Virus record (IMG/VR): IMGVR_UViG_3300030376_004181 | Location: 1 to 40,660 of that record | Strand: one strand, 5' to 3' | Length of the DNA stretch: 40,660 bases | From: a virus | Taxonomy: Duplodnaviria > Caudoviricetes | Shown: piece after piece, positions 821-39,111 of the stretch | How positions within the stretch are numbered: position 1 is the first letter of the stretch | Layout: every line of letters starts with the position of its first letter | Notes under the pieces: model-generated | Seen by the model: the letters and a program-made list of their open reading frames with translations, nothing else | What the model was told of the DNA's origin: nothing | The model's database searches: none | Made by a program: the position numbers and the translations under genes

Positions 821-989
821 AGTTAAACGACTAACTCACGAAGTGTTTATCCTTAGCCTTACTGCTGGGTCAACCGGAATCGTGCTTATCACTTTATCGG
901 GTGAGACAAGAGAGTATGGTATTTGGATTACCGCAGCTAGCTTTGTGTGCCACATGGTAGGTGTATGGATAGATTGGAAAGAAGAGTGA
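807..989 (+). CDS. small two-TM membrane protein (holin-like or partner of the surface protein)
   Basis: ATG at 807 after AGGAG; basic N-terminus plus two hydrophobic helices; conserved in the copy at 38747..38929. Confidence 0.75.
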   Translation: MIKRKVKRLTHEVFILSLTAGSTGIVLITLSGETREYGIWITAASFVCHMVGVWIDWKEE

Positions 990-1171
990 CTCTCGAAGCA
1001 TTGTTCTTAGTTATTCTTACAGCTTGCCTTGTCCCTTGGATGGCTTGGATTTCTACCGTGTTAATTAAGATTGAGATACGTTTAGCTAAGGGTGATGAAG
1101 CGTTAGAAACTGCTGAGGAGCGTTTAGCAGACCATGAGCAAAGATTACGAGCGTTAGAACAACGCTGTTAG
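986..1171 (+). CDS. small protein with one TM helix and a coiled coil
   Basis: GTGA overlap with the upstream stop; hydrophobic N-terminus, then ERLADHEQRLRALE coiled coil; conserved at 38926..39111. Confidence 0.75.
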   Translation: MTLEALFLVILTACLVPWMAWISTVLIKIEIRLAKGDEALETAEERLADHEQRLRALEQRC

Positions 1172-1764
1172 CTACACACCCAGTGTTGCCAACCTCCGCC
1201 TGTAGCCCTGTAAATTAGCCAAGCGCTAACCCTGATATTAGCCTCACCTGAAAAAACGTCTGCTACATAACCTAAAGCAGTACGACTTCTAGCATCCCAA
1301 TACGTTGTCAAGTGTTGCATCAAGCCACTAGCTGTACTAACACTAGACCTCGCTGTAGGATCGCCACCAGATTCACAATCTATAATTTTCAAAAACCTAG
1401 CGGTATCGCTAGCAGGCCCACCGTTCGCTAGTATTGCGTCTTGCACAATTGGCCTCCACCGTTCGACCTCCGGCTTAAAGGTAGCGTTAGGAGAAACAGT
1501 TGAGTACAAACGCACCGAAATGTTCCGTTCCATAGCCCACTGACGATGATGCTTATGCGTATTTGTACCATAAATCCCATCCGTGTTCACGTTCATCCAG
1601 TACTGCAACAACCACACTCTCTCGCTGTCCTCTAACCAGTCATACTCAATAGATATAATGTGATTCTCTATTTTGTCCCAAGGTATGTAAGCTAGAGCTG
1701 TAGCTGACAGTGCGTTGATAGCGAACGTAAATAAAATCGTGCTATAAATAAAGGTCTTTTTCAT
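1168..1764 (-). CDS. exported lytic transglycosylase (SLT/lysozyme-like fold) with signal peptide
   Basis: Signal peptide MKKTFIYSTILFTFAINALSATALA; catalytic CESGG followed by ASGLMQ; DGIYG peptidoglycan-binding-like motif. Confidence 0.8.
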   Translation of the reverse strand: MKKTFIYSTILFTFAINALSATALAYIPWDKIENHIISIEYDWLEDSERVWLLQYWMNVNTDGIYGTNTHKHHRQWAMERNISVRLYSTVSPNATFKPEVERWRPIVQDAILANGGPASDTARFLKIIDCESGGDPTARSSVSTASGLMQHLTTYWDARSRTALGYVADVFSGEANIRVSAWLIYRATGGGWQHWVCS

Positions 1765-2107
1765 TATGGTGTCTCCAAATTGTTAACAGTTCCGCCGTAA
1801 ATTCCGCATCTAAAACAGCTACTTTACCAACTGTCTTTCCTATTTGCGACCTTCTGTCCCCGTGGATAGCAAAGATTACCCACTGATTATTGTGAGCAAC
1901 TTTCCGTATCCTGCTAATCCACGGGAACAGTGTCCAACGCTTGCGATATTTCACTTCAATAGGAATATCTAAGTCCCCCAACCAGATATCGTGAGACTCG
2001 CTACTAGCGCTGGTTCTGTGAGCATCGTTATGCCCCCATTCCATAAGTAAAGCCACTATTTCATTTTCACCCGCAGTTCCTTTTTGTTTTGCTTTAGACA
2101 AAATCAA
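1742..2107 (-). CDS. Holliday junction resolvase, Hjc-like PD-(D/E)xK
   Basis: SKAKQKGTAGENE...HDI...IEVK motif pattern. Confidence 0.75.
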   Translation of the reverse strand: MILSKAKQKGTAGENEIVALLMEWGHNDAHRTSASSESHDIWLGDLDIPIEVKYRKRWTLFPWISRIRKVAHNNQWVIFAIHGDRRSQIGKTVGKVAVLDAEFTAELLTIWRHHNEKDLYL

Positions 2108-2642
2108 ACACTCCTTGTATTTCTGCCCGTTTTTTTTCGACGGTTACGATTGTATCGTTCCTAACTCCTCCATGGGGTACTAAAAGAATTTCTAACATAT
2201 CAAAACCTAAAGTCTTGCCTATGCCCATGGAGTTCCAACCACAACGCACTACGATGGCGTTAGGTTTGCATATCCTTGCGATTTGTTTTTTGATCTCTGA
2301 CCACGGGTTTTGTGTGTCTTCTTGAGTGACTACACGCCCTATCCCGTCGTAGCATTCTTTGATCTGTCTAGAGCTGTACGGTGGGTCAAATAGAACTCCG
2401 TCAACTGACTCATCTTCAAGCAATGAAAGAAAATGCTTAGAGTCGTGATGAAAGTCTGCTTCAAACTCTGGGTTGATGTCGTTTGTGAACTTCATTAAAT
2501 GCTTAAAACAACTGTTACGGACATAAGGATCAACCCAAACTCCCTTGGTCATCACCCTGCGAAGGAGGGAGTTAATGGGTTGAATCCTAAATGTTTCAGA
2601 GTTAGGCATAGCCCATTCTCTATGAAACTGTATTTCTGTCAC
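2094..2642 (-). CDS. putative adenine-specific DNA methyltransferase
   Basis: Catalytic DPPY motif (VLFDPPYS); degenerate SAM-binding VDPY; phage-type AMPNSETF start. Confidence 0.75.
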   Translation of the reverse strand: MTEIQFHREWAMPNSETFRIQPINSLLRRVMTKGVWVDPYVRNSCFKHLMKFTNDINPEFEADFHHDSKHFLSLLEDESVDGVLFDPPYSSRQIKECYDGIGRVVTQEDTQNPWSEIKKQIARICKPNAIVVRCGWNSMGIGKTLGFDMLEILLVPHGGVRNDTIVTVEKKRAEIQGVFDFV

Positions 2643-2830
2643 AAAAGTTCTTTAATGTCTTCTGCAATCGGCCCGTAATGCTGTTCTGCGTAAGCGTCTA
2701 AAGCATCCCGTATCATACCTGATCTAGTTTGACCGTTATGTATCGCTAACTGGTCTACCTTAACTAACAAAGAGTGAGGTATCCGCATAGCAATTAACTG
2801 GTCGTTTTTGTCTTTAAGTGGTGTTTCCAT
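2639..2830 (-). CDS. ribbon-helix-helix (CopG/Arc-like) DNA-binding protein
   Basis: LIAMRIPHSLLVKVDQLA...TRSGMIRDAL pattern; ATG at 2830 has an AGGAG RBS. Confidence 0.75.
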   Translation of the reverse strand: METPLKDKNDQLIAMRIPHSLLVKVDQLAIHNGQTRSGMIRDALDAYAEQHYGPIAEDIKELL

Positions 2831-2832
2831 CG

Positions 2833-2985
2833 TTATTTCTCCTGATGTTTTTGCCCGCATGTAGGGCATTTGTTATTATTATTTTCTATTACTTTTGAGC
2901 CTATGACCCAACCGCAACTACAGCTTATGTAGTACGGTGATTTGGTTCTGAGTTTAGATTTCTTCTGACCGAAATCATCCCACAC
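2833..2985 (-). CDS. 50-aa zinc-ribbon protein (not in the ORF track)
   Basis: Hand translation MWDDFGQKKSKLRTKSPYYISCSCGWVIGSKVIENNNNKCPTCGQKHQEK; TAGTG coupling to ssb; fills the intergenic gap exactly. Confidence 0.7.
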   Translation of the reverse strand: MWDDFGQKKSKLRTKSPYYISCSCGWVIGSKVIENNNNKCPTCGQKHQEK

Positions 2986-3389
2986 TAAAACCAGTCCTCA
3001 TCTTTATCTATTGGCTTACCATCAACTATTGCAGTTTTGCCTTGCCAATCATCTTGCTTAGGCGCTCTAACAATCTGAAATAAATCCCAAACGTTACAGT
3101 CCCAACCAGTTACAGTTTGTCCGTCTTTGTTTTTGTATTGACGGCTGGTAAATTTGCCTCTAACAGCTATCCTGCTACCTTTATCTGTGGCTTTAGCTAT
3201 AGCTTCTGCTAGCGCTGTTGACTCATCTCTGGAGTCTTCCCAAACGCTTAACGTTACCCATGTAGTTTCTTCTGGGCCTGTCTTTACGGCTAACGCATTC
3301 TCATAAACTGCTTTGCCTGTGCCAGTGACCTTGGGTAGCCACTCTCTGCCTAGGTTTCCCATTTGGAAACCGATTCCCTCATTCAACAT
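2985..3389 (-). CDS. ssb: single-stranded DNA-binding protein
   Basis: GNLG, TTWV..SVW, KGSRIAVRGKFTSRQYKNKDGQ motifs; acidic-aromatic C-terminal tail DEDWF. Confidence 0.85.
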   Translation of the reverse strand: MLNEGIGFQMGNLGREWLPKVTGTGKAVYENALAVKTGPEETTWVTLSVWEDSRDESTALAEAIAKATDKGSRIAVRGKFTSRQYKNKDGQTVTGWDCNVWDLFQIVRAPKQDDWQGKTAIVDGKPIDKDEDWF

Positions 3390-3795
3390 TATTGTTCTCC
3401 TTTTTAATTAATTGTTGATGTAATACATAATACTCATCTGATGTCCAAAGTGACAACCCAAGACTTAAGCGCATCCCAATCCGTTTTATACCATCGCTGA
3501 CACTGGCTTTACTGTTCTGACCTGAGTGCTTACTAGGTCTTTCCACCTCGCCAATCTCTTGAATGGTGACTTGTTTGCCATCTATGGTAAAAGTGCATTC
3601 AAGAATGCAACCCTCAACAATGCCCTCTGGACTTCTGATAAGTTCTACTATTCGCATGTCAAACGGACCTAAATGTAACAACAAAAATTGCGTTATATCT
3701 CCGTGGCTGACATACCTGTCACCCCTACCTGTCGGCTTTACTTTAACGAAAGTTTCCGGTATTGGTTTTGATAATTTGATTAATTGTTCAGGCAT
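3379..3795 (-). CDS. Rad52/Sak-like single-strand annealing protein
   Basis: YVSHGDIT...KASVSDGIKR..MRLSLGLSLW matches the Rad52/22 family pattern; adjacent to ssb and an exonuclease. Confidence 0.7.
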   Translation of the reverse strand: MPEQLIKLSKPIPETFVKVKPTGRGDRYVSHGDITQFLLLHLGPFDMRIVELIRSPEGIVEGCILECTFTIDGKQVTIQEIGEVERPSKHSGQNSKASVSDGIKRIGMRLSLGLSLWTSDEYYVLHQQLIKKENNNVE

Positions 3796-4048
3796 CTATT
3801 TTCTCCCAATTCGGATATTTTTCTTCTAACTCTTTCATACGTCTCTGTGAAGAGACCCAACTTTCCCAACAATACATTGTCCAATCTTCTAAATCATTTA
3901 ACAATTTTTTATTAGGTTCTGTTTCTTCTTCTTCTAATCTCTCCGCTAGAGATAAAAAGTTTTCCATGCCTTGCATCATTTTGACATCGTGTGCAAGCCA
4001 CTTGTATGTTTGCCTATCAAGTGTTTCTTGATCAGGTTCTTTCATCAT
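3788..4048 (-). CDS. hypothetical protein
   Basis: Overlapping coupling with both neighbours; near-identical partial copy at 40410..40660. Confidence 0.75.
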   Translation of the reverse strand: MMKEPDQETLDRQTYKWLAHDVKMMQGMENFLSLAERLEEEETEPNKKLLNDLEDWTMYCWESWVSSQRRMKELEEKYPNWEKIDA

Positions 4049-4901
4049 TATCTCCTTTCAGTAATGATTCATGGTAACGAGCTGTCGTCAAGGTGACCTC
4101 TGTTGGTCCCACCATCTGACAAAGTTCGTTGTGTCTACAGTATCTACATTGCCAGTGTCCGCCTTTGTGAGGCACACCATACGGGCTAGGGCTTTCAACT
4201 AACTTGTCTACCCCGTTGTCGTCAAACAGTACGGCATCTGGGAGCATGTCGTTACTGAGGTCTTGTTGCACTGAGCGGAACAGTTCTAGTTCAGCGTCAG
4301 CTAACTGCATAGGTGACATTCCGTACTCGTAGATGACTTCATCTAAAGGTATGACCCATTCAATGATGTCTCCTGCTTTTGTTTTGCTACGGAAGTCGTC
4401 GCCTTTAGCCATGTACACAAGGTACACAGCGTCTACTTGCCCACCTGCTTCAATTATACCTTTGGCATACAGGCTAGCTTGTGACAAATGTTCTCGTTTA
4501 GGCACACCTGATTCTCTACTGAGCTTAAACCCGAATGGCGACATGGTTTTTATTTCTAACAACCTGTATTCGCCATTGACTTTTATTAATCCGTCACAGC
4601 TACCACTAAGGCTAACACCTGTGTACGACAAATCTATCGGTGTCTCATACTCTCCTAGAAATTGATCAGCGCACGCTTCTTGAATTACGTTGTGCATGTG
4701 TGTACCTAACTCAAATGCAAGCAGGGTTGATGTGTCTATTTCGTGACACTCATGTGTCTGTAAGGCGTTGAATCCTCGCTGACGTAAACACGCACCACTG
4801 TCACTCACACGGCTCTGCGTACCGCAAGCTGTTGGCTTAACGGAACGATTGCCCTGTAAGAACTGTTCGTATGCTGTGGTGATATCAGTTGTTTGTTTCA
4901 T
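4032..4901 (-). CDS. Cas4-like PD-(D/E)xK exonuclease
   Basis: N-terminal C (GACLRQ), GTHMH, SGSCDG..LLEIKT, Q...Y and C-terminal CRYC..C Fe-S cluster pattern. Confidence 0.8.
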   Translation of the reverse strand: MKQTTDITTAYEQFLQGNRSVKPTACGTQSRVSDSGACLRQRGFNALQTHECHEIDTSTLLAFELGTHMHNVIQEACADQFLGEYETPIDLSYTGVSLSGSCDGLIKVNGEYRLLEIKTMSPFGFKLSRESGVPKREHLSQASLYAKGIIEAGGQVDAVYLVYMAKGDDFRSKTKAGDIIEWVIPLDEVIYEYGMSPMQLADAELELFRSVQQDLSNDMLPDAVLFDDNGVDKLVESPSPYGVPHKGGHWQCRYCRHNELCQMVGPTEVTLTTARYHESLLKGDNDERT

Positions 4902-5277
4902 AATCTTCTCCTAGTCTGTAATACGCTACCTTTGCTCCACCGTTTAGGTTATCCATTTTGCGTTCAATAGGTACACCAAACTCTTCAGAGAGCTGACGTA
5001 TCCTACGTTGCCAATCACCTTTACCCAGTGTATAGCGCAAGTCTTCTCCACAAACCCAAGAGTTTGTGTCAGAAACACGATGGCTTCTTCCATCAGCTAT
5101 TTTCTTAATGTATAGCAGATAGTCGTAGACTTCTTTGCATTTCTTTCCTGCGTCTTTGAGGGACTTGGCTGATTGATGCTCAAGTCCCTCCCGATGACCT
5201 GCTCTGGCTCGTTCTGCCTTTAGTAACTGCCTGAACGGTCTTCGGCATGTTGGGCATGACTTGATATCATTCATCAT
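4885..5277 (-). CDS. hypothetical protein, possible winged-HTH with N-terminal CxxC
   Basis: CPTC; WQRRIRQLSEEFGVPIER...AYYRL resembles a winged helix. Confidence 0.55.
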   Translation of the reverse strand: MMNDIKSCPTCRRPFRQLLKAERARAGHREGLEHQSAKSLKDAGKKCKEVYDYLLYIKKIADGRSHRVSDTNSWVCGEDLRYTLGKGDWQRRIRQLSEEFGVPIERKMDNLNGGAKVAYYRLGEDYETNN

Positions 5278-5413
5278 CGTCTGCCCTAACTTTTGTCTCT
5301 GCCTCTATAAGTTCTACAAGTATTTGTTGCGATGCAATGATCGCATTAGCAACGTTGTAGATTCCTTTGAGGTGAGGTTCGTCTGTTTCAAATGGTTTTA
5401 TTTCATCTGGCAT
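5267..5413 (-). CDS. 48-aa hypothetical protein
   Basis: Hand translation MPDEIKPFETDEPHLKGIYNVANAIIASQQILVELIEAETKVRADDDE; GAGGAGG RBS. Confidence 0.6.
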   Translation of the reverse strand: MPDEIKPFETDEPHLKGIYNVANAIIASQQILVELIEAETKVRADDDE

Positions 5414-5414
5414 A

Positions 5415-5558
5415 TTATTCCTCCTCTAATGGTTCAGCGTCTATTGCTTCCGCTAAACCTTCTCTGTGTTGTAACAAATAACCTTGTTCATCTATGCGCT
5501 GAATTAAACTACTGATCTCGTTGCCGAGTCGGTCATCATGTATAGATTCTTCGGTCAT
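5415..5558 (-). CDS. 47-aa acidic hypothetical protein
   Basis: Hand translation MTEESIHDDRLGNEISSLIQRIDEQGYLLQHREGLAEAIDAEPLEEE; abuts the next gene. Confidence 0.55.
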   Translation of the reverse strand: MTEESIHDDRLGNEISSLIQRIDEQGYLLQHREGLAEAIDAEPLEEE

Positions 5559-5590
5559 TATTATTTCTAGTACATTAACCTTCTTGCTCA

Positions 5591-5794
5591 TTAGTGTAAC
5601 TCCATGGTGTCATGTGTGACACTGTAGTTACGCACATATCTAGCAATACCAAACCTGTGCGAGCCATCAATATCATCGAGAACGCTACGCACAACCTCTC
5701 TCGCTGATGGTGCATACCCATCCTCGTAGTGCATGTACTGATGGTCAATGAACTCTTGAGTTACATGGATAGTAACATCAAATTGTATTTCCAT
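5591..5794 (-). CDS. hypothetical protein
   Basis: ORF with GAAGGA RBS and TAATG coupling. Confidence 0.65.
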   Translation of the reverse strand: MEIQFDVTIHVTQEFIDHQYMHYEDGYAPSAREVVRSVLDDIDGSHRFGIARYVRNYSVTHDTMELH

Positions 5795-5922
5795 TACTCT
5801 AATCCTTCCTTATAGTAAAGCTCTTCCTCACGTTGAGCGTGAAGAGCATTTGTTTCTCTTTCTAAAGCCTCATCAAAGGCTTCTTCTTGTTCGGGTGTAA
5901 ACCCCAACAGTTTTATTTTCAT
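5794..5922 (-). CDS. 42-aa acidic hypothetical protein
   Basis: Hand translation MKIKLLGFTPEQEEAFDEALERETNALHAQREEELYYKEGLE; strong AGAAAGGAAAG RBS. Confidence 0.65.
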   Translation of the reverse strand: MKIKLLGFTPEQEEAFDEALERETNALHAQREEELYYKEGLE

Positions 5923-5948
5923 AGCTTTCCTTTCTTTTGTTATATTCA

Positions 5949-5976
5949 ATTATACACGACCTGCAACAGATCTCAA
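5949..5976 (-). promoter_or_regulatory. sigma70/SigA-type promoter for the recombination operon
   Basis: Minus strand TTGAGA-N16-TATAAT upstream of the RBS of 5794..5922. Confidence 0.6.
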
Positions 5977-5982
5977 ATCATG

Positions 5983-6150
5983 TTACACATCGTTTGACCA
6001 GTTCGCTCCATTACAGAACGGACAAGTCGGATACCTGTCAGAGATTGCATCACCAATAAAAGCTCTGCAATCAAGACACTTCACGAAGAACTTGCTTAAG
6101 CCTTTAGACTTACGCTTCTTCGTTTTCTCTTGTGAGAAATCAAAGTCCAT
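5983..6150 (-). CDS. small zinc-ribbon protein
   Basis: Start MDFDF at 6150 after AGAAAGAAGGAAAC; CLDC...CPFC. Confidence 0.7.
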   Translation of the reverse strand: MDFDFSQEKTKKRKSKGLSKFFVKCLDCRAFIGDAISDRYPTCPFCNGANWSNDV

Positions 6151-6202
6151 GTTTCCTTCTTTCTTTATTACCTTCTTGGTGTATAACCTTGTGTACAGGG
6201 TA

Positions 6203-6436
6203 TCACACGCTGTCAAGTCGGGTCTTCATCATCCTCCATCTGTAACGCTCAGATGCAGTCATTCCATGTCTGAAACCCCAGAGTTGGAAAGGGTCTGGCT
6301 CATCTTCAGCAGACGTAGCAATACACTGTTCAATAACAGGGCATCCATCACAAACAGACCTGCACTTACGATGCTGGTCCGAATAGAATACCGTAGTCAT
6401 GCCACGACAGCCAGCTCTCTCTCTCCAATTATCCAT
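6203..6436 (-). CDS. whiB: WhiB-family Fe-S transcription factor
   Basis: WRERAGC...VF...VCDGCPVIEQC...LWGFRHGMTASER: four-Cys WhiB spacing with a variant G(V/I)WGG turn. Confidence 0.8.
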   Translation of the reverse strand: MDNWRERAGCRGMTTVFYSDQHRKCRSVCDGCPVIEQCIATSAEDEPDPFQLWGFRHGMTASERYRWRMMKTRLDSV

Positions 6437-6451
6437 TCTTTTACTATACAC

Positions 6452-6501
6452 CAAAGAACCCCCTGCGTAGGAAAAGAAGGAAGGAAACCTACGCAAGGGG
6501 T
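6452..6501 (-). terminator. intrinsic-terminator-like hairpin ending the early operon
   Basis: 14-bp stem ACCCCUUGCGUAGG/CCUACGCAGGGGGU (G-U pair works only on the minus strand), followed by UCUUU. Confidence 0.6.
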
Positions 6502-6510
6502 CTAATGATT

Positions 6511-6597
6511 CTAGCCGTAAACTAGCTCACCAAACAACCCGTACTGAACAATAATGTTAGCCCAGTCTGCACCTTGTTCTTGTATTTCTTCTTTCAT
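6511..6597 (-). CDS. 28-aa peptide
   Basis: MKEEIQEQGADWANIIVQYGLFGELVYG with a strong AGAAAGGAAAG RBS. Confidence 0.55.
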   Translation of the reverse strand: MKEEIQEQGADWANIIVQYGLFGELVYG

Positions 6598-6619
6598 ATT
6601 CTTTCCTTTCTTTGTTAAT

Positions 6620-6808
6620 CTAAGCGATTAAATTATCAGGGTCAAAGGCTAGGTCATACACAAAGGTTTGTGCTTGTGACCATGCCGACTCACCATTAAA
6701 ACGTTTGACGACCTTGTTAGTAGAGATTTTGCGAACAACTGCTACGAGGTTCACATCATCTACTTCTGAAACATAATCGCCTTCTTGATAATCAATTACT
6801 AAACTCAT
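6620..6808 (-). CDS. hypothetical early protein
   Basis: Strong AGAAAGGAAAG RBS; tandem array. Confidence 0.75.
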   Translation of the reverse strand: MSLVIDYQEGDYVSEVDDVNLVAVVRKISTNKVVKRFNGESAWSQAQTFVYDLAFDPDNLIA

Positions 6809-6839
6809 ATTTCTTTCCTTTCTTTATTGTTATTAATTA

Positions 6840-7103
6840 TTAAAATGGTTCAGCATCAAACTCATGGAGCACATCTTCGTAAGCTTGAATAACAAGAGTG
6901 TCATTATCTACGACAGTTGTGCGAACCTTAAGACCACGTGCTTTTCCAGCTTGCTTCGCACCATTACGCATGGTGTTTACATTGCTTTGGAAATCATCAG
7001 GTCGTGTAAGTTTCCAGATGTTACCATCTAGCCACAAATTCCATTCATACTTTCCCTTGCGACCAGCGCTAGCGAAAGCAAATCTTTCTAATTGTGTTGC
7101 CAT
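6840..7103 (-). CDS. hypothetical early protein
   Basis: RBS AGAAAGGAAAG; GRKGKYEWNLWLDGNIWKL motif. Confidence 0.8.
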   Translation of the reverse strand: MATQLERFAFASAGRKGKYEWNLWLDGNIWKLTRPDDFQSNVNTMRNGAKQAGKARGLKVRTTVVDNDTLVIQAYEDVLHEFDAEPF

Positions 7104-7241
7104 AATTTATCTTTCCTTTCTGAAACAAACACTTGGAGTGTTTCCCACTGTCCACCATCTAAGGGAGGTAAGTATGGTGGACAGGGAGCTACACTCTTCA
7201 GCTCTGGGAGATTCCCTGAATCGTCAGAGGTTGCTAGTTCT

Positions 7242-7418
7242 TTAGCATTCTTGTACGTCAAGAACCATAGTTGATGTGTGCATAGCATGATCGTAAGCAT
7301 CATTAATAGTTGCTTCGCTCTCAGCCATGTCACGTGCATCGTAATCATTATTTGCCTCAACTTCTACCCACTCGTCATCCTCGTAGATGTGGTTGAGATG
7401 TACTTTGTACGTTGCCAT
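7242..7418 (-). CDS. 58-aa acidic early protein (not in the ORF track)
   Basis: Hand translation MATYKVHLNHIYEDDEWVEVEANNDYDARDMAESEATINDAYDHAMHTSTMVLDVQEC; AAAGAAGGAAAAG RBS. Confidence 0.75.
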   Translation of the reverse strand: MATYKVHLNHIYEDDEWVEVEANNDYDARDMAESEATINDAYDHAMHTSTMVLDVQEC

Positions 7419-7436
7419 TATCTTTTCCTTCTTTCC

Positions 7437-7487
7437 GTGCCTTATCTAAGCACTGAGAAAGACACCTTACGATGTCCAACCCACAAC
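7437..7487 (-). ncRNA. intergenic structured motif, family B copy 1
   Basis: GUUG UGGG UU GGACAUC GUAA GGUGUCU UU CUCA GUGC..GCAC, then SD; covaries with 9618..9669. Confidence 0.7.
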
Positions 7488-7766
7488 TTAGAACGATGAG
7501 TTATCAAATAAGTATTCTTCAGTTTGAAAACCATTCGCCATGACAAATTCTTTTATCTCTGACTTCAAATAAATGTTGCTTTTATTTTTTTCAATTACCG
7601 GAGTAGGAAATCCACGACCATCATATCGTCGCCTCCAATTATTAACTCTTTGGTCAGTAGTTGTATAATAATCAGCGACATCACGCAAATTCCATAACTC
7701 ATCCTTACATTGTTCTAAGAATCTGCGTATGTCGTTGTCATCGCTTGGTGTGTAGTATTTAACCAT
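7488..7766 (-). CDS. AlpA/Xis/MerR-like helix-turn-helix protein
   Basis: LWNLRDVADYY...VNNWRRR..GFPTPV...IYLKSEIKEF pattern. Confidence 0.65.
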   Translation of the reverse strand: MVKYYTPSDDNDIRRFLEQCKDELWNLRDVADYYTTTDQRVNNWRRRYDGRGFPTPVIEKNKSNIYLKSEIKEFVMANGFQTEEYLFDNSSF

Positions 7767-7782
7767 ATCTTCCTTCTTTCTT

Positions 7783-7830
7783 TCTGATGCTTACTTAACA
7801 TCCTAGAGCACACCCTGCGATGTGCTCCGA
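7783..7830 (-). ncRNA. intergenic structured motif, family A copy 1
   Basis: UCGGAGCACA-loop-UGUGCUCU AG GAUG..CAUC AGA immediately before the SD. Confidence 0.75.
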
Positions 7831-7834
7831 GTTA

Positions 7835-8374
7835 TTAACTAGCTAACTCTGCTCTTTTCTTTTCCATCAAAGCATTAAACTCACGCTTATTATACGAAGT
7901 TGCATTAGTTGATAGACCAATACGACGCTCCAAATCTTCACGGGTAACTTCCCGATGAATTTGTTTTTCAAACTTGAGTTCATCCTCATTGAATTGCAAG
8001 TAATAGAACTTAACATACCCGCCATACCCAGAATCTATAAACATTTCAATTCTGCGCATCCATTCGTTAATGTTGCTCTCTTTGATAACGTTAAGCCCGA
8101 CTGTCATCGTCATCCATACAATACTTTGAGTGACGTTGTGCTCTATCCACGTATTAATACGGGACAGGAACAGCCCTAGCTCTTGCTCGTTGTCTTTGTC
8201 TGGAAGTGGACCCCATTGTGCATCACCTAGTGATGACAGTTGGACCTCTTCAATAACAAAGCCAGACGAATCTTTAACTTTGAATACCGGATATTCTGTG
8301 TCGCCTATGTAGGCTGTTGCACAGGATATTTCCGAGTAGTCAGAGACATTCGCTACTGACCAATTAAATGGCAT
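7835..8374 (-). CDS. hypothetical early protein
   Basis: 179-aa ORF with AGAAAGAAGGAAAAG RBS, bounded by family A motifs. Confidence 0.85.
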   Translation of the reverse strand: MPFNWSVANVSDYSEISCATAYIGDTEYPVFKVKDSSGFVIEEVQLSSLGDAQWGPLPDKDNEQELGLFLSRINTWIEHNVTQSIVWMTMTVGLNVIKESNINEWMRRIEMFIDSGYGGYVKFYYLQFNEDELKFEKQIHREVTREDLERRIGLSTNATSYNKREFNALMEKKRAELAS

Positions 8375-8388
8375 ATCTTTTCCTTCTT

Positions 8389-8439
8389 TCTGATGTTCCT
8401 AGCGAACATCCTAGAACGCACCCTTACGATGCGCTCCGA
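8389..8439 (-). ncRNA. intergenic structured motif, family A copy 2
   Basis: Compensatory change GCGCA/UGCGU in stem 1; stem 2 GAUGUUC/GAACAUC. Confidence 0.75.
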
Positions 8440-8447
8440 GCTATTAG

Positions 8448-8744
8448 CTAGTCCCATAACGTTGCTCCGCACGCTTCGCATGCGTAGTCATCGTCATCGT
8501 ATGGAGGATGGTCACAATCCGTATCAAAATCAGTGGAATAGCATAGAAATTTATTGTTATCTTTAGGGTTAGGATGCAACCATCCGTTACCGTTATTGAT
8601 AGTTAAATATTTTTCAATAGTTTTTATGCTATGACTTCTACAGACATCAATAGTTTGTGACCCCACATGTGCGACTTCTTCATCACAAGTCCATAGGGAA
8701 CCCATCAACGTTGTATACGTTTCTATTCGTCTACCTTTAGCCAT
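8448..8744 (-). CDS. hypothetical Cys-containing early protein
   Basis: Start MAKGRR at 8744 after SD; CDHPPYDDDDYACEACGATL C-terminus. Confidence 0.8.
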   Translation of the reverse strand: MAKGRRIETYTTLMGSLWTCDEEVAHVGSQTIDVCRSHSIKTIEKYLTINNGNGWLHPNPKDNNKFLCYSTDFDTDCDHPPYDDDDYACEACGATLWD

Positions 8745-8757
8745 TATCTTCCTTCTT

Positions 8758-8812
8758 TCTGACACCACCTAGTTAGTTGGCATCCTAGAACACACCCTGC
8801 GATGTGCTCCGA
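8758..8812 (-). ncRNA. intergenic structured motif, family A copy 3
   Basis: Stem 2 GAUGCCA/UGGUGUC is maintained by G-U pairs on the minus strand. Confidence 0.75.
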
Positions 8813-8820
8813 CATAACAA

Positions 8821-9138
8821 CTAAACGTTATATATTTCTTCTATGAAATCTTTGAAATTATTAGTCACATTCTTATTGACTTCAATAGTTTCCTTACGAT
8901 TACCGCTATGATCTACGCCCCAACTATGGAACAATTCTGCCATAGGATACCGGCTATCTACAGTAAATCTAACTGTAGGTCCACCATACGTAATAAGAAA
9001 CTCACAAATATAATCTTGATTACATGCCTCATTCGTTATGCTCCGCTCGGTAAATAGCCGAACTTCTAAGCAATCAAATTCGCTTAAATCTTGGTGTTCA
9101 CTTTCAAAGTGATCCCGATATTCAAATATGTTTTCCAT
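8821..9138 (-). CDS. hypothetical early protein
   Basis: Start MENIF at 9138 after SD; LITYGGPTVRF...SWG motif. Confidence 0.8.
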   Translation of the reverse strand: MENIFEYRDHFESEHQDLSEFDCLEVRLFTERSITNEACNQDYICEFLITYGGPTVRFTVDSRYPMAELFHSWGVDHSGNRKETIEVNKNVTNNFKDFIEEIYNV

Positions 9139-9153
9139 TATCTTTCCCTTCTT

Positions 9154-9199
9154 TCTGATGCTTAGCATCCTAGAACACACACTGTCGCATGTGCTCCGA
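9154..9199 (-). ncRNA. intergenic structured motif, family A copy 4
   Basis: UCGGAGCACAUGC GACA GUGUGUGUUCU AG GAUGC UAA GCAUC AGA. Confidence 0.75.
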
Positions 9200-9208
9200 G
9201 CTGTTAAG

Positions 9209-9364
9209 CTACTTAACTTTCTTAAGTATCTCCGCTAACTTGTCTAATGTTTCTTTGTCCATATTATTAACGGCATCAAGGTTAATCGTCTGGTTCCATT
9301 GTTTACGGAACTCATCACCTGATTCATCGGGATTACTAATTCCCATAATTTCTATACTTGGCAT
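9209..9364 (-). CDS. 51-aa early protein
   Basis: Start MPSIE at 9364 after SD. Confidence 0.7.
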   Translation of the reverse strand: MPSIEIMGISNPDESGDEFRKQWNQTINLDAVNNMDKETLDKLAEILKKVK

Positions 9365-9381
9365 TATCTTCCTTCTTTCTT

Positions 9382-9431
9382 TTTGATGTTTACTTAACAT
9401 CCTAGAACACATGCTTGCACATGTGCTCCGA
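9382..9431 (-). ncRNA. intergenic structured motif, family A copy 5
   Basis: GGAGCACAUG..GCAA..CAUGUGUUCU AG GAUGUU..AACAUC. Confidence 0.75.
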
Positions 9432-9435
9432 GATA

Positions 9436-9603
9436 TCAACTATCTACAGTTACCCGAATAGTTTTATTGAAGGGAATCCAACCTTCACGCCTAGCCTTAT
9501 TCATATAGTAAATTTCAGTAAGCATAAACAATCCGTAGCCTTTTGTTTTCTCTTCAAGTTGTTCCCACCATTCAATAGTTTTACCTTCAAACATAGGTCC
9601 CAT
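9436..9603 (-). CDS. small early protein
   Basis: Start MGPMF after SD AGAAAGAAGGAAG. Confidence 0.7.
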   Translation of the reverse strand: MGPMFEGKTIEWWEQLEEKTKGYGLFMLTEIYYMNKARREGWIPFNKTIRVTVDS

Positions 9604-9617
9604 CATCTTCCTTCTTT

Positions 9618-9669
9618 CTAGTGCACTAGGCACTAGGAAAGGCACTATTTCTAATGCCCAACCTACAAC
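9618..9669 (-). ncRNA. intergenic structured motif, family B copy 2
   Basis: GUUG UAGG UU GGGCAUUA GAAA UAGUGCCU UU CCUA GUGC..GCAC; GNRA loop. Confidence 0.7.
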
Positions 9670-9882
9670 CTAGACAATTATGCAACCCGTCTGTCCGCAT
9701 CCTAGTTGCTCAAATGTTTCCGATTGGAAATATTCAACAACATCTTTACGCACAAGTTGGTATAGCGGTAAATCAATTGGCGCTTCTATGTCATAATTAT
9801 CTGCCCATTCTTTAACCTTTACGGTTACCGTGATGGGAATAAGGATTGTCATAGTGCCATCCTTAATGTTTAAATCGCTCAT
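9670..9882 (-). CDS. hypothetical early protein
   Basis: SD AGAAAGAAGGAAG; cassette arrangement. Confidence 0.75.
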   Translation of the reverse strand: MSDLNIKDGTMTILIPITVTVKVKEWADNYDIEAPIDLPLYQLVRKDVVEYFQSETFEQLGCGQTGCIIV

Positions 9883-9896
9883 TATTCTTCCTTCTT

Positions 9897-9942
9897 TCTG
9901 ATGCAGTTAGCATCTTAGAGCACACCTCACGATGTGCTCCGA
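9897..9942 (-). ncRNA. intergenic structured motif, family A copy 6
   Basis: UCGGAGCACAUC GUGA GGUGUGCUCU AA GAUGC..GCAUC AGA. Confidence 0.75.
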
Positions 9943-9954
9943 GATAATAACTAT

Positions 9955-10158
9955 CTATCCCCCGTATGGTCCTGCCCAATTTGGACCAGTCATATTTTTA
10001 AATTCGCCGGTGCCTAATTGGGTTACACCGTTAAACCTTCGGTCACGCTCCCACCGTAGCGCTTTATGCGCTTGACGATTACGGAGACGCTCTAATCGTA
10101 ACTGATTAAGTTCACGGTCACGGCGTGCTTTACGTAACTTACGTTTGTACTCTTCCAT
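9955..10158 (-). CDS. Arg-rich first early protein
   Basis: Start MEEYKRK at 10158; its SD lies inside hammerhead stem III. Confidence 0.7.
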   Translation of the reverse strand: MEEYKRKLRKARRDRELNQLRLERLRNRQAHKALRWERDRRFNGVTQLGTGEFKNMTGPNWAGPYGG

Positions 10159-10162
10159 GTTG

Positions 10163-10219
10163 CCTTCTTTCTGCATCCCTTACGGGTGCTCATCAGTGTG
10201 GTCAATTCCACAGAGAAGG
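10163..10219 (-). ncRNA. type III hammerhead-like ribozyme (variant core)
   Basis: CCUUC-UC/UGUGG-AAUUGA-CCACA-CUGAUGA-GCACCC-GUAA-GGGAUGC-A-GAAA-GAAGG: stems I-III and core present; one extra A before GAAA. Confidence 0.7.
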
Positions 10220-10229
10220 AAAGAAAGAT

Positions 10230-10500
10230 TCTTATTTATCCTTAGGTCCATACGGACTCCATCGGTGGTATACCGGCAGGTACCGGCTAAGCGATTATAC
10301 TAGGGCTTTCTATCCATCATCACGGTGGAACCTTCCCTTTAATATCCCTTTTTCTCATCAGGATAAAAGACTCGCATATTTTGGGGACTTTCAACCCTAT
10401 GGAAGATTTCTTTTACTAGCCGGATGTCTCCGCTTTACCTTCCTTTTCCTGACCCCTACCTCAGGGCTTGAGTTGATCCGGTTTCTGTTTCAACTTCAGT
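10230..10500 (-). ncRNA. long structured leader/ncRNA upstream of the hammerhead
   Basis: No credible ORF; four long-range 7-8 bp helices with minus-strand G-U pairs, plus local hairpins. Confidence 0.55.
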
Positions 10501-10641
10501 AATAGTAACGATAGCGCTATATGGGTCATAAATGGTGTCACATACCATGATTTAAACAGATACCGCTATCTAAAAAACAGATGGTTAACCGGACCGATTC
10601 ACCTAGCATAGATTTAAAAATGATGCAAATCAGGCTAAAAG

Positions 10642-10678
10642 CGAACATACGTTCGTAAAAAAAGCGAACATACGTTCG
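10642..10678. promoter_or_regulatory. tandem LexA (SOS) boxes, Gram-positive type
   Basis: CGAACATACGTTCG at 10642-10655 and 10665-10678; matches CGAAC-N4-GTTCG. Confidence 0.7.
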
Positions 10679-10689
10679 TAAAATAGACC

Positions 10690-10786
10690 CTCTCAGATGC
10701 TCTATATGGCGTTTAAATGATTATTTAGTACCGCAGTATCCCCAAAAAAAACGAGGCTGTGAGAGCCGTCATATAGCGTCTCAGAG
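10690..10786. repeat. imperfect long inverted repeat
   Basis: CTCTCAGATGCTCTATATGGCG ... CGTCATATAGCGTCTCAGAG. Confidence 0.5.
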
Positions 10787-10836
10787 TAAATCCATATTTA
10801 TGCAGTCGGGTGAATAAATATACACGACCACCACCG

Positions 10837-10880
10837 ATCTAATGACAACCATTAAAACCAATCTAATGAACCCCATTAAA
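10837..10880. repeat. 20-bp direct repeat of a palindromic operator-like site
   Basis: ATCTAATGACAACCATTAAA and ATCTAATGAACCCCATTAAA; each contains TAATG-N5-CATTA. Confidence 0.7.
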
Positions 10881-10913
10881 TATAAAGTCTAACCCTCTAC
10901 CTTAGGTTTAGGG

Positions 10914-10942
10914 CGAACGTACGTTCGGCGAACATATGTTCG
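10914..10942. promoter_or_regulatory. second pair of LexA (SOS) boxes
   Basis: CGAACGTACGTTCG at 10914-10927 and CGAACATATGTTCG at 10929-10942. Confidence 0.7.
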
Positions 10943-11000
10943 GTTTAGATGACTTAACGGGGTAAGTGCCTTGATACCCCCCCCTCCTCTGTGTATATAC

Positions 11001-11104
11001 GGTGTTTTGGGGGTTTTGGTTTAGTGGTTTGTGTGTTGTGGGGGTGTTTTTTTGTGTGTGTTTGGGTGTTTTGTTTGTTGGTGTTTGGTTGATTTGTTTT
11101 GGGG
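11001..11104 (+). other. G/T-only low-complexity tract, candidate genome terminus/packaging region
   Basis: About 100 nt almost free of A and C, after a C-run and just upstream of the terminase operon. Confidence 0.45.
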
Positions 11105-11378
11105 CGTAGTTTCCCTTGGGAACCTCCCAAGCATTGGGGTTGCTTTGACCTTGTAATCGCTTTGTCCTGTGCGTTACGCCCCTGTGCGCTCATTTCCTTT
11201 TTGCGTTGTCACAGGGGACCGTTACCCTTCTGACGGGTGACTCACCGAGGGTTAGTCGGGCGCTGCTTACAGGCGGTGTTGTGGTTGGTCAAGGGTCCAC
11301 AATCCCCTTTTTGTTTTTAGGTATGGGTTAGGATACCCTTTCGGGTATTTAGTTACAACATGGTGTTGGGAGTTTTTT

Positions 11379-11477
11379 GTGTTTTGTGAAGATTTTGATG
11401 AAATAGTTGATGATGTTGATGATGAGCTGCTAGAGTGTGGCTTAGAAAATCCTGACATTTGTGAGAGTTGTCAGTAA
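11379..11477 (+). CDS. 32-aa acidic peptide ending CGLENPDICESCQ
   Basis: Hand translation from GTG after GGGAG: MFCEDFDEIVDDVDDELLECGLENPDICESCQ. Confidence 0.6.
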   Translation: MFCEDFDEIVDDVDDELLECGLENPDICESCQ

Positions 11478-11487
11478 GGAGAGTATT

Positions 11488-11580
11488 ATGCCATACGGTA
11501 AGGGTACATACGGTAGTAAGGTTGGTAGACCACCTAAGAAAAAAAATGGTGGTAAGAAAAAGAAAAGGAAAAAAATGTAA
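11488..11580 (+). CDS. 30-aa basic peptide with AT-hook-like GRPPK
   Basis: MPYGKGTYGSKVGRPPKKKNGGKKKKRKKM; AAGGAG RBS. Confidence 0.7.
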   Translation: MPYGKGTYGSKVGRPPKKKNGGKKKKRKKM

Positions 11581-11714
11581 TGGCTAAATCTGGTTTGTAT
11601 GCAAATATTCATAAGCGCAGAAAAAGCGGTAAACCTATGCGTAAAAAAGGTCAGAAAGGTGCTCCTACTGACGCTGCTTTTAGAAAAGCTAAAAGGACTG
11701 CAAAGAAAAAGTAA
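11580..11714 (+). CDS. 44-aa basic peptide
   Basis: MAKSGLYANIHKRRKSGKPMRKKGQKGAPTDAAFRKAKRTAKKK; TAATG coupling on both sides. Confidence 0.7.
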   Translation: MAKSGLYANIHKRRKSGKPMRKKGQKGAPTDAAFRKAKRTAKKK

Positions 11715-12004
11715 TGGCTAAGAAAAAAGATTCTCGTTTAGCTAAAATTGGTGTATCTAAATATAACCAAGTTAAGCGCACGCCTAATCATCCTACGAAG
11801 TCGCATGTTGTTGTGGCTAAGGGTAAGGGTTGTGAGAACGGTAAGGTTATTCGTTTTGGTCAGCAGGGTGTTAAGGGTGCTGGTAAGAATCCTAAAACAG
11901 CTAAAGAAAAAGCTCGGCGTAAAGCATTTAAAGCTCGTCATGCAAAGAATATATCTAAAGGGGTTTGTTCTGCTGCATATTGGGCTAACAAGACTAAGTG
12001 GTAA
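11714..12004 (+). CDS. basic hypothetical phage protein
   Basis: Lys/Arg-rich; RFGQQG..RRKAFKARH..SAAYWANKTKW. Confidence 0.8.
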   Translation: MAKKKDSRLAKIGVSKYNQVKRTPNHPTKSHVVVAKGKGCENGKVIRFGQQGVKGAGKNPKTAKEKARRKAFKARHAKNISKGVCSAAYWANKTKW

Positions 12005-13915
12005 ATGGGGTCTGGTAAAGCTACACCTGTAGAAAAGTGGGCTGAGTATTTATTGCTGCGTCGCAGTTTAAGTATGTATCAGGCTGCTAAACAGGCTGGT
12101 GTTAATTATCATTCAGCTAGAGACAATGAGTCTGGGCGTGTGTCTACACGCAACTATGTTGTTGCTAAGGAGCAAACTGAACGTGTAGGTGTATCTACTA
12201 TACCCACGTATAAAGAATTGCCTGAAGAAGTTCAAGAGTGTTGGGATAATATTGAAAAATTTGCGCTGCGTTATTTTGGTATTGTTTTGCAGCCGTGGCA
12301 AATAGAAGCTACAGAAAAGATATTTGAACTATTTGAAACACCATTAGAAGAATATTGTGTTATTAATGCACCACCTGGAAGTGGAAAATCTACTTTTTTT
12401 GCTAAGGTTTTGCCAGCATGGGCAACGGTTCGTAACAGAGCCATTAGAGGGATGCTCGGTTCCTCAACCCAACGTCTCGCTGAATGGTATACACGGCGTT
12501 TGAGAGCGGAGTTTGAACGAGAGCATGTTGCCCGTGCTGAGCTAAACGACATTAAGTTAGGGTTAGCAGTTGATGCTGAACGTACTATGCAACAAGACTT
12601 TGGGCAGTTTAAACCTGACGCTAAAGAAATTTGGCGTGCTGAAGCATTTACTGTAGTGCAACAAGGTGATGTGCCGTTATCGCAGAAAGAACCGTCGTGG
12701 TCTGCGTTTGGTATGGACTCTGGGTTTCTTGGTGGTCGTTTTGATCTTATTATTTGGGATGATGTTTGGGACCCTCGCAAGATGCGTAACTCTGAGTCTC
12801 GTTCTGACATGTATCGTTGGTGGGATGAGGTAGCTGAAACACGGTTAGAGCCTGCTGGGTTGCTTATATTGCAGGGGCAGCGTATGGCTTCTGATGATAT
12901 TTATAGGTATGCGTTAGATAAGTTTGCGCCTGTTGATGAGGAAGACGATGTTGAAGAAGTTGATGAAAATAAAGTAGATACGGAAGGTGAACGTAAGTAT
13001 ACGCATCTTAAATTTAAAGCGCATTATGATGATAGGTGCGATCATTTGCATAAGCCTAGTGATGTTGCGTATCCTGAAGGTTGTTTGTTGTATCCTCGTA
13101 GGTTGCCGTGGCGACGTATACGACATGTTAAAGCGCAAACACCTGACCGTTACGAAATACTGTACCAACAGGAAGACACTGACCCTGCGTCTGTGCTTGT
13201 AGACCCTTTATGGATTAGTGGGGGGCAAGGCGATAATGGTGTGGAGTATATTGGTTGTTGGGACAAAGACCGTGACTTGTGGGAAGTGCCAAAGTATTTA
13301 GCTGGCGAAGTTATGGTTATAGCGTCTGCGGACCCTTCTCCGTCTAATTTTTGGGCGTTGCAATGTTGGGCGTATTGTCCTGAGTCAGAGTACAGGTATT
13401 TGTTAGAGTCGTATAGAAAGAAAATGGATGCTCCGTCGTTTCTTGATTGGAACCATGATACGCAACGGTTTACTGGTATAGCTGAAGAGTGGTGGCAAAT
13501 AAGTAACGATATTGGTCACCCGATTACGCATTGGATAGTTGAGGCTAACGCTGCTCAAAAGTTTATTTTGCAGTACGATCATTTTCGGCGGTGGTCTGCG
13601 TTGCGTGGTGTAGAGCTTATTCCGCATTACACGCATTCTAGAAATAAAGGTGACCCTAAGTATGGTGTGCAAATGCTTGCACCGTTGTATCGCTTGGGTC
13701 GTATTAGGCTTGCTGGGAAACAGCATACTGATGCTAGACCTCATTCGTTGCTTTTAATTAATGAAGTAACAAAATGGAATCCAGAAGGCACAGGGTCTAG
13801 AACTGATGACTGTGTGATGGCACAATGGTTCGTAGAACATAATCTTAATAAATTGTACGTGCCTCCGTCTGAGCCTATTAGACAGTGGCGACCAACTTGG
13901 GTAACAGAAAGTTAA
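12005..13915 (+). CDS. terL: terminase large subunit
   Basis: LQPWQ Q-motif, Walker A NAPPGSGKST, Walker B LIIWDD, YQQ, nuclease SADPS...TDDCVMA. Confidence 0.92.
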   Translation: MGSGKATPVEKWAEYLLLRRSLSMYQAAKQAGVNYHSARDNESGRVSTRNYVVAKEQTERVGVSTIPTYKELPEEVQECWDNIEKFALRYFGIVLQPWQIEATEKIFELFETPLEEYCVINAPPGSGKSTFFAKVLPAWATVRNRAIRGMLGSSTQRLAEWYTRRLRAEFEREHVARAELNDIKLGLAVDAERTMQQDFGQFKPDAKEIWRAEAFTVVQQGDVPLSQKEPSWSAFGMDSGFLGGRFDLIIWDDVWDPRKMRNSESRSDMYRWWDEVAETRLEPAGLLILQGQRMASDDIYRYALDKFAPVDEEDDVEEVDENKVDTEGERKYTHLKFKAHYDDRCDHLHKPSDVAYPEGCLLYPRRLPWRRIRHVKAQTPDRYEILYQQEDTDPASVLVDPLWISGGQGDNGVEYIGCWDKDRDLWEVPKYLAGEVMVIASADPSPSNFWALQCWAYCPESEYRYLLESYRKKMDAPSFLDWNHDTQRFTGIAEEWWQISNDIGHPITHWIVEANAAQKFILQYDHFRRWSALRGVELIPHYTHSRNKGDPKYGVQMLAPLYRLGRIRLAGKQHTDARPHSLLLINEVTKWNPEGTGSRTDDCVMAQWFVEHNLNKLYVPPSEPIRQWRPTWVTES

Positions 13916-38760: not shown

Positions 38761-38929
38761 ACTTAAACGGTTAACACGTGAAGTATTTATTCTTAGTTTA
38801 ACTGCTGGCTCTACGGGTATTGTGCTGATTACGTTGTCAGGGGAGACAAGAGAGTACGGTATTTGGATTACCGTAGCTAGCTTTGTGTGTCACATGGTAG
38901 GTGTATGGATTGATTGGAAAGAAGAGTGA
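38747..38929 (+). CDS. small two-TM membrane protein (allele of 807..989)
   Basis: Near-identical protein with many synonymous changes. Confidence 0.8.
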
Positions 38930-39111
38930 CTCTTGAAGCACTGTTCTTAGTTATTCTTACAGCTTGTCTTGTGCCTTGGATGGCTTGGATTTCTACCGTG
39001 TTAATTAAGATTGAGATACGTTTAGCTAAGGGTGACGAAGCTTTAGAGACTGCTGAAGAACGGTTAGCTGACCATGAGCAACGCATCAGGGCGTTAGAGT
39101 CTGTCCGTTAG
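38926..39111 (+). CDS. TM plus coiled-coil protein (allele of 986..1171)
   Basis: Near-identical protein. Confidence 0.8.
   Translation: MTLEALFLVILTACLVPWMAWISTVLIKIEIRLAKGDEALETAEERLADHEQRIRALESVR

Follow-up and report, generated by a model that had tools for sequence, protein, structure and literature searches.

Repeated RNA hairpins between small early genes of an uncultured phage are probable RNase III processing sites resembling those of T7

In phages T7 and T3, the early genes are separated by the RNase III processing signals R0.3, R0.5, R1, R1.1 and R1.3, imperfect intergenic hairpins of about 50 nucleotides with a tetraloop. The early RNA of the Bacillus phage SP82 likewise has an RNase III site. 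In SP82 and SPO1 a polypurine 5′ stabilizer has been described (PMC7509114), and clustered phage hammerheads have been proposed to cut long transcripts into gene-length messages (Perreault et al., PMC3088659). Here we analyze the virus record IMGVR_UViG_3300030376_004181 (40,660 bases; hereafter the window), which derives from an uncultured marine phage and in which the slots ahead of ten small genes (10158 to 7103, minus strand) are filled by six copies of one repeat, denoted family A, two copies of family B, one family C element and, in the first slot, a hammerhead. According to our analysis, family A likely works in the manner of a T7 early RNase III site, and a self-cutting RNA of a new class is improbable; specifically, family A is probably a repeated processing site of the host RNase III, within which the start of the released message is encoded as well. 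No published description of the family A element emerged from our literature search, which did not extend to most older or subscription-only articles or to supplementary lists of candidate phage RNAs, where one may exist; PMC5371410 and PMC7771536 provide general context only.

Family A is located between the stop codon and the Shine-Dalgarno (SD) sequence of co-oriented small genes. The search pattern TCGGAGCRCA-N6-12-TGYGYTCTARGATG matched the window six times (7799-7830, 8407-8439, 8781-8812, 9166-9199, 9398-9431 and 9911-9942), always on the minus strand, which is that of the small genes, and had no match in 100 dinucleotide shuffles of the window; a covariance model scan of the window returned exactly these six strong copies and their own reverse strands. 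The six repeats reported in the initial annotation thus exist, and the consensus given for them holds broadly, except that the copy at 8758 closes with UGUC and the one at 9382 has AAAAAGAAAG. When viral and metagenomic contigs and terminase-anchored loci were scanned with the pattern, the number of distinct copies with a downstream SD-ATG rose to 77, namely 6 from the window and 71 from relatives, in 35 loci counted as 28 contigs. Among the 16 distinct pattern hits that were excluded for want of a downstream SD-ATG, 15 look unrelated, and the remaining hit, in L158, is a genuine copy where the contig stops. The pattern was also matched in L094, L095, L097, L099, L127 and L130 by a hairpin that is conserved but unrelated, AGAGCACAU-loop-UGUGCUCUAAGAUAAU, which lies in an A+T-rich context with no SD after it.

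Each copy had been drawn as two hairpins, and both of these covary: the GAUG/CAUC stem is paired in 99.3% of 287 cells (59 of the 77 copies aligned), with two-sided changes at three of five pairs, compared to 9-64% in slid controls. The element, however, begins about 12 nucleotides 5′ of the UC that had been taken as its start and has a second, exclusive fold. This long fold is one imperfect hairpin of about 23 positions comprising an upper stem of 10-11 base pairs with a tetraloop (mostly GNRA-type or UUCG), a C.A mismatch and an 11-position lower stem, in which the 11 nucleotides ahead of the mismatch pair with the R-GAUG-loop segment. The lower stem, which the initial annotation missed and the 5′ strand of which lay outside the search pattern, is paired in 87.6% of 645 cells as opposed to 81.0% in shuffles (0 of 500 reach the observed value) and 19-46% in slid controls; two-sided changes are found at 5 of the 11 pairs (at one position, 21 G-C vs 20 C-G), and two positions are frequently mismatched. 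The shuffles disregard relatedness among the copies, so that these figures measure consistency rather than probability. In the other fold, the 3′ strand of the lower stem pairs with the downstream CAUC and gives a small hairpin immediately ahead of the ribosome-binding tract. Because both stems use bases +1 to +5, the two folds exclude each other. In single-copy ensembles, the long fold has P>0.5 in 61 of the 77 precursors, and in transcripts truncated at +10, as would occur during transcription, the lower stem and with it the long fold forms in 73. The most conserved family A bases are paired in the long fold, with the exception of the C.A mismatch, which is present in all 77 copies next to a G.U in 74 and is replaced by U.U pairs in family B.

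The evidence that points to RNase III comes from the register in which the long hairpin fits the E. coli consensus WNAGWGNNCWUNNN^NAWGNNCWCUNW (PMC4357697), scored along each 3′ arm in 11 registers with a maximum of 16. AR^GAUG is the best register in all six window copies (10-12 of 16; 2.7% of the genome background scores 10 or higher), and in the complete set it is uniquely best in 56 copies and tied in 11. As a control, the same scan was applied to the pre-1.1 hairpin of T7, where it predicts cutting after base 5887, in agreement with the published position of R1.1 (PMC8708148). Four of the five T7 early hairpins score 11-14, and the best register is on the 3′ arm in four of the five annotated T3 RNase III sites. 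The labels of the T7 sites other than R1.1 were assigned by position and general knowledge; the T7 records carry no such annotation. The predicted cut is 12 nucleotides from the loop in 51 of the 77 family A copies and 13 in another 25, and the corresponding distances are 12 in T7 pre-0.3 and 13 in R1.1. The minimal E. coli substrate has 11 base pairs to the 5′ cut and gives a 28-nucleotide double-cut product (PMC1540722); the imperfect family A hairpin, with about two helical turns and about 11 base pairs from cut to loop, agrees with the helix-length rule of that study. The proximal- and distal-box determinants given there can also be mapped onto family A, the mapping being our own. Proximal-box position 2 is A-U in 77 of 77 copies (in those outside the window, it is fixed by the search pattern), position 4 is never GC or CG (G.U in 74, U.U in 3), and distal-box position 2 is U-G in 47 and U-A in 28; distal-box U-G has been reported for B. 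subtilis sites (bioRxiv 10.1101/2023.03.12.532304). Family A and T7 R1.1 have in common A-U at pair 3, G-C/G-U at pair 4 and A-U/U-G at pairs 8-9, pairs 8-10 are common to family A and T7 pre-0.3, a G-C at position 2 sets family A apart, and in no copy is pair 10 U-A. Furthermore, when a model of the hairpin only, derived from 57 hairpins of family A and excluding the SD, was run against 28,202 bases of T7, T3 and SPO1 DNA, its top match, albeit weak, was the T7 pre-0.3 hairpin (T7 853-901; 16.1 bits, rough E 0.03). Among the 43 phage open reading frames (ORFs) scanned in Pfam, none contains an RNase III domain.

In the mechanism that we propose, the long hairpin would fold first during transcription and RNase III would cut its 3′ arm at AR^GAUG, 12-13 nucleotides from the loop; a staggered cut at C^GGAG may or may not accompany this one. 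The freed strand would then refold, such that the downstream message starts with a flush hairpin of 5-7 base pairs and has an open SD, and after a single cut the upper stem would stay on the upstream message as a 3′ hairpin. The outcome would be stabilized single-gene messages, with families B and C acting alike at other junctions and the hammerhead supplying the 5′ end of the first gene. Pairing at the 5′ terminus protects messages (PMC7509114, PMC3997798). Single-strand cuts that leave 3′ hairpins have been described as stability determinants (PMC3867540). In all 77 predicted products, the first three bases are paired and the SD is unpaired. The mean unpaired probability of the SD is 0.94 before the cut and 0.97 after it, and because the SD is open in both states, the element is not an on/off switch of translation.

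Several points weigh against processing by RNase III. According to a review (PMC8708148), RNase III sites have no strong common consensus. The AR^GAUG register is beaten in 10 of the 77 copies, and pair-preserving shuffles of eight window elements gave p values of 0.005-0.23, below 0.05 for four of six family A and one of two family B copies, so that the consensus is weak. The T7 pre-1 hairpin scored 8 of 16, with the loop end set one base off in the scoring, the scan misplaced T3 R1, and the hairpin-only model missed the other nine of the 10 T7/T3 early sites. Proximal-box position 3 is G-C, unlike the E. coli optimum, and distal-box position 1 is never the U-A preferred by E. coli (it is C-G in 60 of 77, as in T7 pre-0.3); distal boxes are expected to differ between species (PMC1540722). 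The RNAalifold consensus of 59 copies is the two-hairpin fold, which is also favored in 7 of the 77 single-copy ensembles, the sole such window copy in uncut form being the one at 8392..8449 (P 0.73). The hairpin predicted for the product has a mean of just -6.0 kcal/mol, which is weak, and at standard state it exceeds the leftover duplex in stability in no more than 31 of the 77 copies, so that release would also rely on dilution. The copies are related, hence the counts are not independent events, and the invariance of the upper stem is in part imposed by the search pattern. Finally, the available RNA evidence consists of a single run (0.06 share of words) with 10 assembled contig pieces from relatives, which cannot show ends, strand or level, and an RNA end at the predicted cut was not seen.

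The conservation of both folds would also be expected of a conformational element that is left uncut, in which a terminating ribosome melts the lower stem, the two hairpins form and the stability or translation of the next gene is altered; such an element needs no RNase III and, in a variant, would steer another nuclease such as RNase E/J. The location of the upstream stop codon fits this scenario: among the 69 copies that follow a long frame (the remaining 8 of the 77 have none), it starts 9 nucleotides before GGAG in 35 and 13-14 nucleotides before it in 24. In these 59 copies it thus lies inside the lower stem or at its foot, and terminating ribosomes could therefore compete with cutting. 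Nevertheless, an SD that is open in both states leaves no on/off switch of translation to be operated, and this scenario leaves unexplained why, in three families of distinct sequence, the second hairpin starts at the base picked out by the consensus register. We consider it unlikely and prefer the reading of family A as an RNase III site.

The statement in the initial annotation that one motif precedes each small early gene is correct for six of the ten genes, the other four being preceded by the two family B copies, the family C element and the hammerhead. All family A copies are on the minus strand. Copy 1 spans 9900..9952, with the long hairpin at 9952-9905 (upper stem 9940-9917), the predicted first base after the cut at 9914, the product hairpin at 9914-9900 and the next ATG at 9882. 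The same features (extent; long hairpin; first base after the predicted cut; product hairpin; next ATG) are located at 9385..9441, 9441-9392, 9401, 9401-9385 and 9364 in copy 2; 9157..9209, 9209-9160, 9169, 9169-9157 and 9138 in copy 3; 8761..8822, 8822-8775, 8784, 8784-8761 and 8744 in copy 4; 8392..8449, 8449-8401, 8410, 8410-8392 and 8374 in copy 5; and 7786..7840, 7840-7793, 7802, 7802-7786 and 7766 in copy 6. The family B copy at 9618..9673 (minus strand) has a hairpin of 22 positions, interrupted internally by U.U and G.G/U.U mismatches, as well as a 3′ hairpin as the alternative fold, and its best consensus register places the first base after the cut at 9634; the second copy, at 7435..7491 (minus strand), is of the same design with the best register at 7454. 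In both, the best register is ^AGUG. The family C element at 7122..7196 (minus strand) has a long hairpin with a large loop, an alternative 3′ hairpin and the best register at 7144 (12 of 16), at most one base from the product hairpin.

The three families have the same layout and distinct sequences, without a catalytic-looking or unpaired conserved core in common; a family A model that includes the SD detects B and C weakly. A sequence-free scan of 462 SD-ATG contexts found a long symmetric hairpin in 135, of which 79 are family A entries, and the 56 others include 25 of family B, about nine further variants of the same design and unrelated hairpins. Within family B, 14 of 25 copies have the best register at 13 nucleotides, 9 tie between 11 and 13 and 2 prefer 11, and in families B and C the best register is within about two bases of the start of the product hairpin. 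Further long-hairpin variants, with product hairpins that begin 13-15 nucleotides from the loop, were observed in L118, L154, L158, L111, L001:4555, L162:2740, L137:3219, L147:892 and L117:403. In L006, L020 and L043, family B occupies slots where the window has A, and in the 31 loci with upstream DNA that were scanned, out of 79 terminase relatives at greater distance, family A is present in L004 and L019 only. This distribution bears on the possibility that family A is a binding site for a phage or host protein, either an RNA-binding regulator or part of an antitermination signal. Such a role would account for the high sequence conservation of the upper stem across family A, and many early proteins belong to no known family. 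Against it, A, B, C and the variants differ in sequence yet fill the same slots, some relatives have only B in the scanned region, the loops vary among stable tetraloops, and one site per gene exceeds what antitermination would generally need. A protein-binding site thus seems very unlikely.

The type III hammerhead at 10163..10219 (minus strand; predicted cleavage between 10213 and 10212) precedes the first early gene (ATG 10158). The layout that had been described for it is real: stem III is formed by CCUUC and the GAAGG of the ribosome-binding tract, and an extra A at 10172 is inserted between stem II and GAAA. The loci contain 19 distinct type III hammerheads, in which stems I and II vary yet stay paired, the GAAGG of the SD is part of stem III and the extra A precedes GAAA without exception; this A was not found among the core variants in the consulted passages of PMC3088659. 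The Rfam scan did not list the hammerhead at 10163-10219, even at E 10. Self-cleavage would release the CCUUC strand and thereby free the SD of the first gene.

The initial annotation drew a parallel between the layouts of this hammerhead and family A and saw in the latter a candidate new class of processing or self-cleaving RNA. In a self-cleaving version, the long hairpin would cut near the C.A/G.U junction, refolding into the small hairpin would release the product, and the element would be interchangeable with the hammerhead. Such a ribozyme finds some support in the 19 distinct copies in which a hammerhead occupies the first slot, in published clustered hammerheads flanking phage genes (PMC3088659), in the lack of Rfam matches for family A and in the near invariance of C.A beside G.U (77 and 74 of 77). 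The parallel, however, reduces to the AGAAAGAAGG ribosome-binding tract, which also precedes genes without a hairpin; the AGAAAG tract is found ahead of unstructured genes. Family A lacks the CUGAnGA core strand, the linker between its hairpins being just two nucleotides, AG or AA, in all 77 copies, and it lacks stem III, with no upstream CCUUC complement to GAAGG; none of the 19 sequences from the hammerhead scan is a family A copy. Given that A, B and C have no unpaired conserved core in common and that the hammerhead parallel is a shared ribosome-binding tract, we regard a new self-cleaving class in the slot of the hammerhead as highly improbable, in this specific version as well as in general, and a conserved RNase III site as far more likely. 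The proposal of a processing or stabilizing system therefore gains from the RNase III geometry and the T7/T3 register, its self-cleaving part is not supported, the hammerhead core and a common unpaired core being missing, and the hope of a new ribozyme class is lowered.

Nor does family A match a family in Rfam: the scan with Rfam 15, including the RAGATH motifs, twister, pistol, hatchet and hepatitis delta virus (HDV) families, gave 0 matches at the gathering score in the window and none in eight related loci, the best E-value on a copy being 0.89. This weak hit on one copy is to osmY RNA (RF03036), which similarly consists of two hairpins followed by a purine-rich ribosome site; it is driven by the ribosome-site tail and reaches 19.1 bits vs a gathering score of 46.9, so family A is not a member. 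The layouts of the HDV, pistol, twister, twister-sister, hatchet and hairpin ribozymes were compared from general knowledge and rejected, the tested part of this comparison being the Rfam scan. A pseudoknot in which the second loop pairs with the 5′ strand was rejected as well, because it would leave copies such as 9900-9952 without a connecting loop and is impossible where the second loop has 3 nucleotides.

At the DNA level, the repeats may be involved in the shuffling of small genes. One upstream gene end is joined via family A to up to eight downstream genes (28 upstream and 39 downstream clusters), and near the shuffled early genes the phage encodes a recombination kit, with matches to a RusA-like resolvase (1742-2107), a DNA methyltransferase (2094-2642), a single-strand-binding protein (2985-3389), a single-strand annealing protein (3379-3795) and a Cas4-like exonuclease (4032-4901). 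These joints, together with the matches to the annealing protein, exonuclease and resolvase, would be compatible with family A being primarily a DNA homology cassette in which the RNA folds are incidental. However, the message strand has compensatory changes, G.U pairs and GNRA and UUCG loops, which show that RNA folding is under selection, and the 3′ arm goes with the gene upstream (identity 0.79 vs a background of 0.68) rather than with the downstream gene (0.70). As the 3′ arm travels with the upstream gene, exchanges seem to occur mostly in the purine tract, and covariation at the RNA level implies that shuffling is not the sole role of the repeats. We find a cassette as the primary function very improbable; rather, the repeats probably ease shuffling, which is likely a side effect of an RNA-processing element. 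Three other candidates were rejected. No terminator-like site (a U-run after a stem) is present at any family A copy, arguing against an intrinsic terminator; the 12 promoter-like sites (14.4 expected) are out of register with the repeats, arguing against a sigma-70 promoter cassette; and, by inspection, GTT precedes AAC, the reverse of what we take to be the motif order of an integron attC site.

The small early gene run (6840..10158, minus strand) consists of ten genes interrupted by the elements, at 9955-10158, 9670-9882, 9436-9606, 9209-9364, 8821-9138, 8448-8744, 7835-8374, 7488-7766, 7242-7418 and 6840-7103, all on the minus strand; gene content and position suggest that this region is early. 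Nine of the ten genes have no Pfam or PHROG match, and gene 7488-7766 has a weak DNA-binding/helix-turn-helix match in these scans. Elsewhere, the record has matches to terminase, capsid and endolysin, as well as a WhiB-like regulator (6203..6403, minus strand), the sole host clue. WhiB-like genes are confined to Actinobacteria according to a marine virome paper (PMC3861242), and because one is present here, the host is probably actinobacterial. A homolog search with this gene found two close relatives. In a comparison with 50,697 annotated phages, the 20 listed out of 50 records have just 23-28% identity to the terminase, which gives no indication of the host, and blastn of 7400-10300 against the same phages produced zero matches; terminase hits in GTDB fall on four short contigs in bins of unrelated metagenome-assembled genomes and were dismissed as binning noise. 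In run X1, a contig with a depth of about 370, from a relative, carries a family A-like stretch (window 8410-8449), and a second contig (window 7781/10204), also from a relative, joins a hammerhead-like stretch to an SD tract. Upstream of the WhiB-like gene, at 6459-6500 (minus strand), a G+C-rich inverted repeat followed by UUCUUU has a 16-nucleotide pyrimidine loop complementary to the SD tract of the phage itself; a similar repeat is present in L001 and L003, and the repeat at 6459-6500 may terminate the early unit. Palindromic words of the CGAACRTAYGTTCG type recur at 10640-10685 and 10915-10945, in non-coding DNA between the early and late arms; they have a related hairpin in L161 and might be origin, packaging or operator sites. 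The ends of the record repeat each other at 71-83% identity (7-1158 vs 37944-39098, 1767-1999 vs 39123-39355 and 3470-4005 vs 40113-40660), and this low identity suggests that overlapping ends were assembled from distinct strains and that the record has no true terminal repeat.

The present analysis yields base-exact predictions for how an uncultured marine phage would divide an early transcript into messages of one gene each. It also suggests that the T7-like rules of RNase III recognition extend to a distant, probably actinobacterial host. With four solutions in the same slot (hammerhead, A, B and C), a single operon offers a natural comparison of ribozyme and nuclease. Should the cut indeed trigger the flush 5′ hairpin, the unit of about 60 nucleotides would be a compact insulator for synthetic operons, and the hammerhead at 10163-10219, if active, would be a natural ribosome site that is opened by self-cleavage.

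Among the described systems, the clustered hammerheads of Perreault et al. are alike in that a hammerhead fills the first slot here and differ in that family A has no hammerhead core. SP82/SPO1 early RNA resembles the messages predicted here in its strong purine-rich ribosome-binding tract tied to stability, and a scan of SPO1 positions 1-13500 with the family A hairpin model gave no convincing match, the best one (E 0.2) leaving the upper stem unaligned. The closest likeness is to the early sites of T7 and T3, with which family A shares a mismatch 10-11 base pairs from the loop, the 3′ arm register RGUG-NN-CUY-NNN^GAU and a predicted cut that lies 12-13 nucleotides from the loop and shortly before the ribosome site that follows. 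Family A, known here by sequence alone and from a probably actinobacterial host, departs from these sites in that distal-box position 1 and proximal-box position 3 are off the E. coli optimum. It also departs from them in that near-identical copies stand at almost every junction of small, shuffled genes, and in that a flush product hairpin is predicted for all 77 copies, compared to one of 10 T7/T3 sites (T7 R1.1, one base in). The chances appear evenly balanced that family A is a conserved RNase III site that makes the protective 5′ hairpin of its own product and doubles as a gene-shuffling junction.

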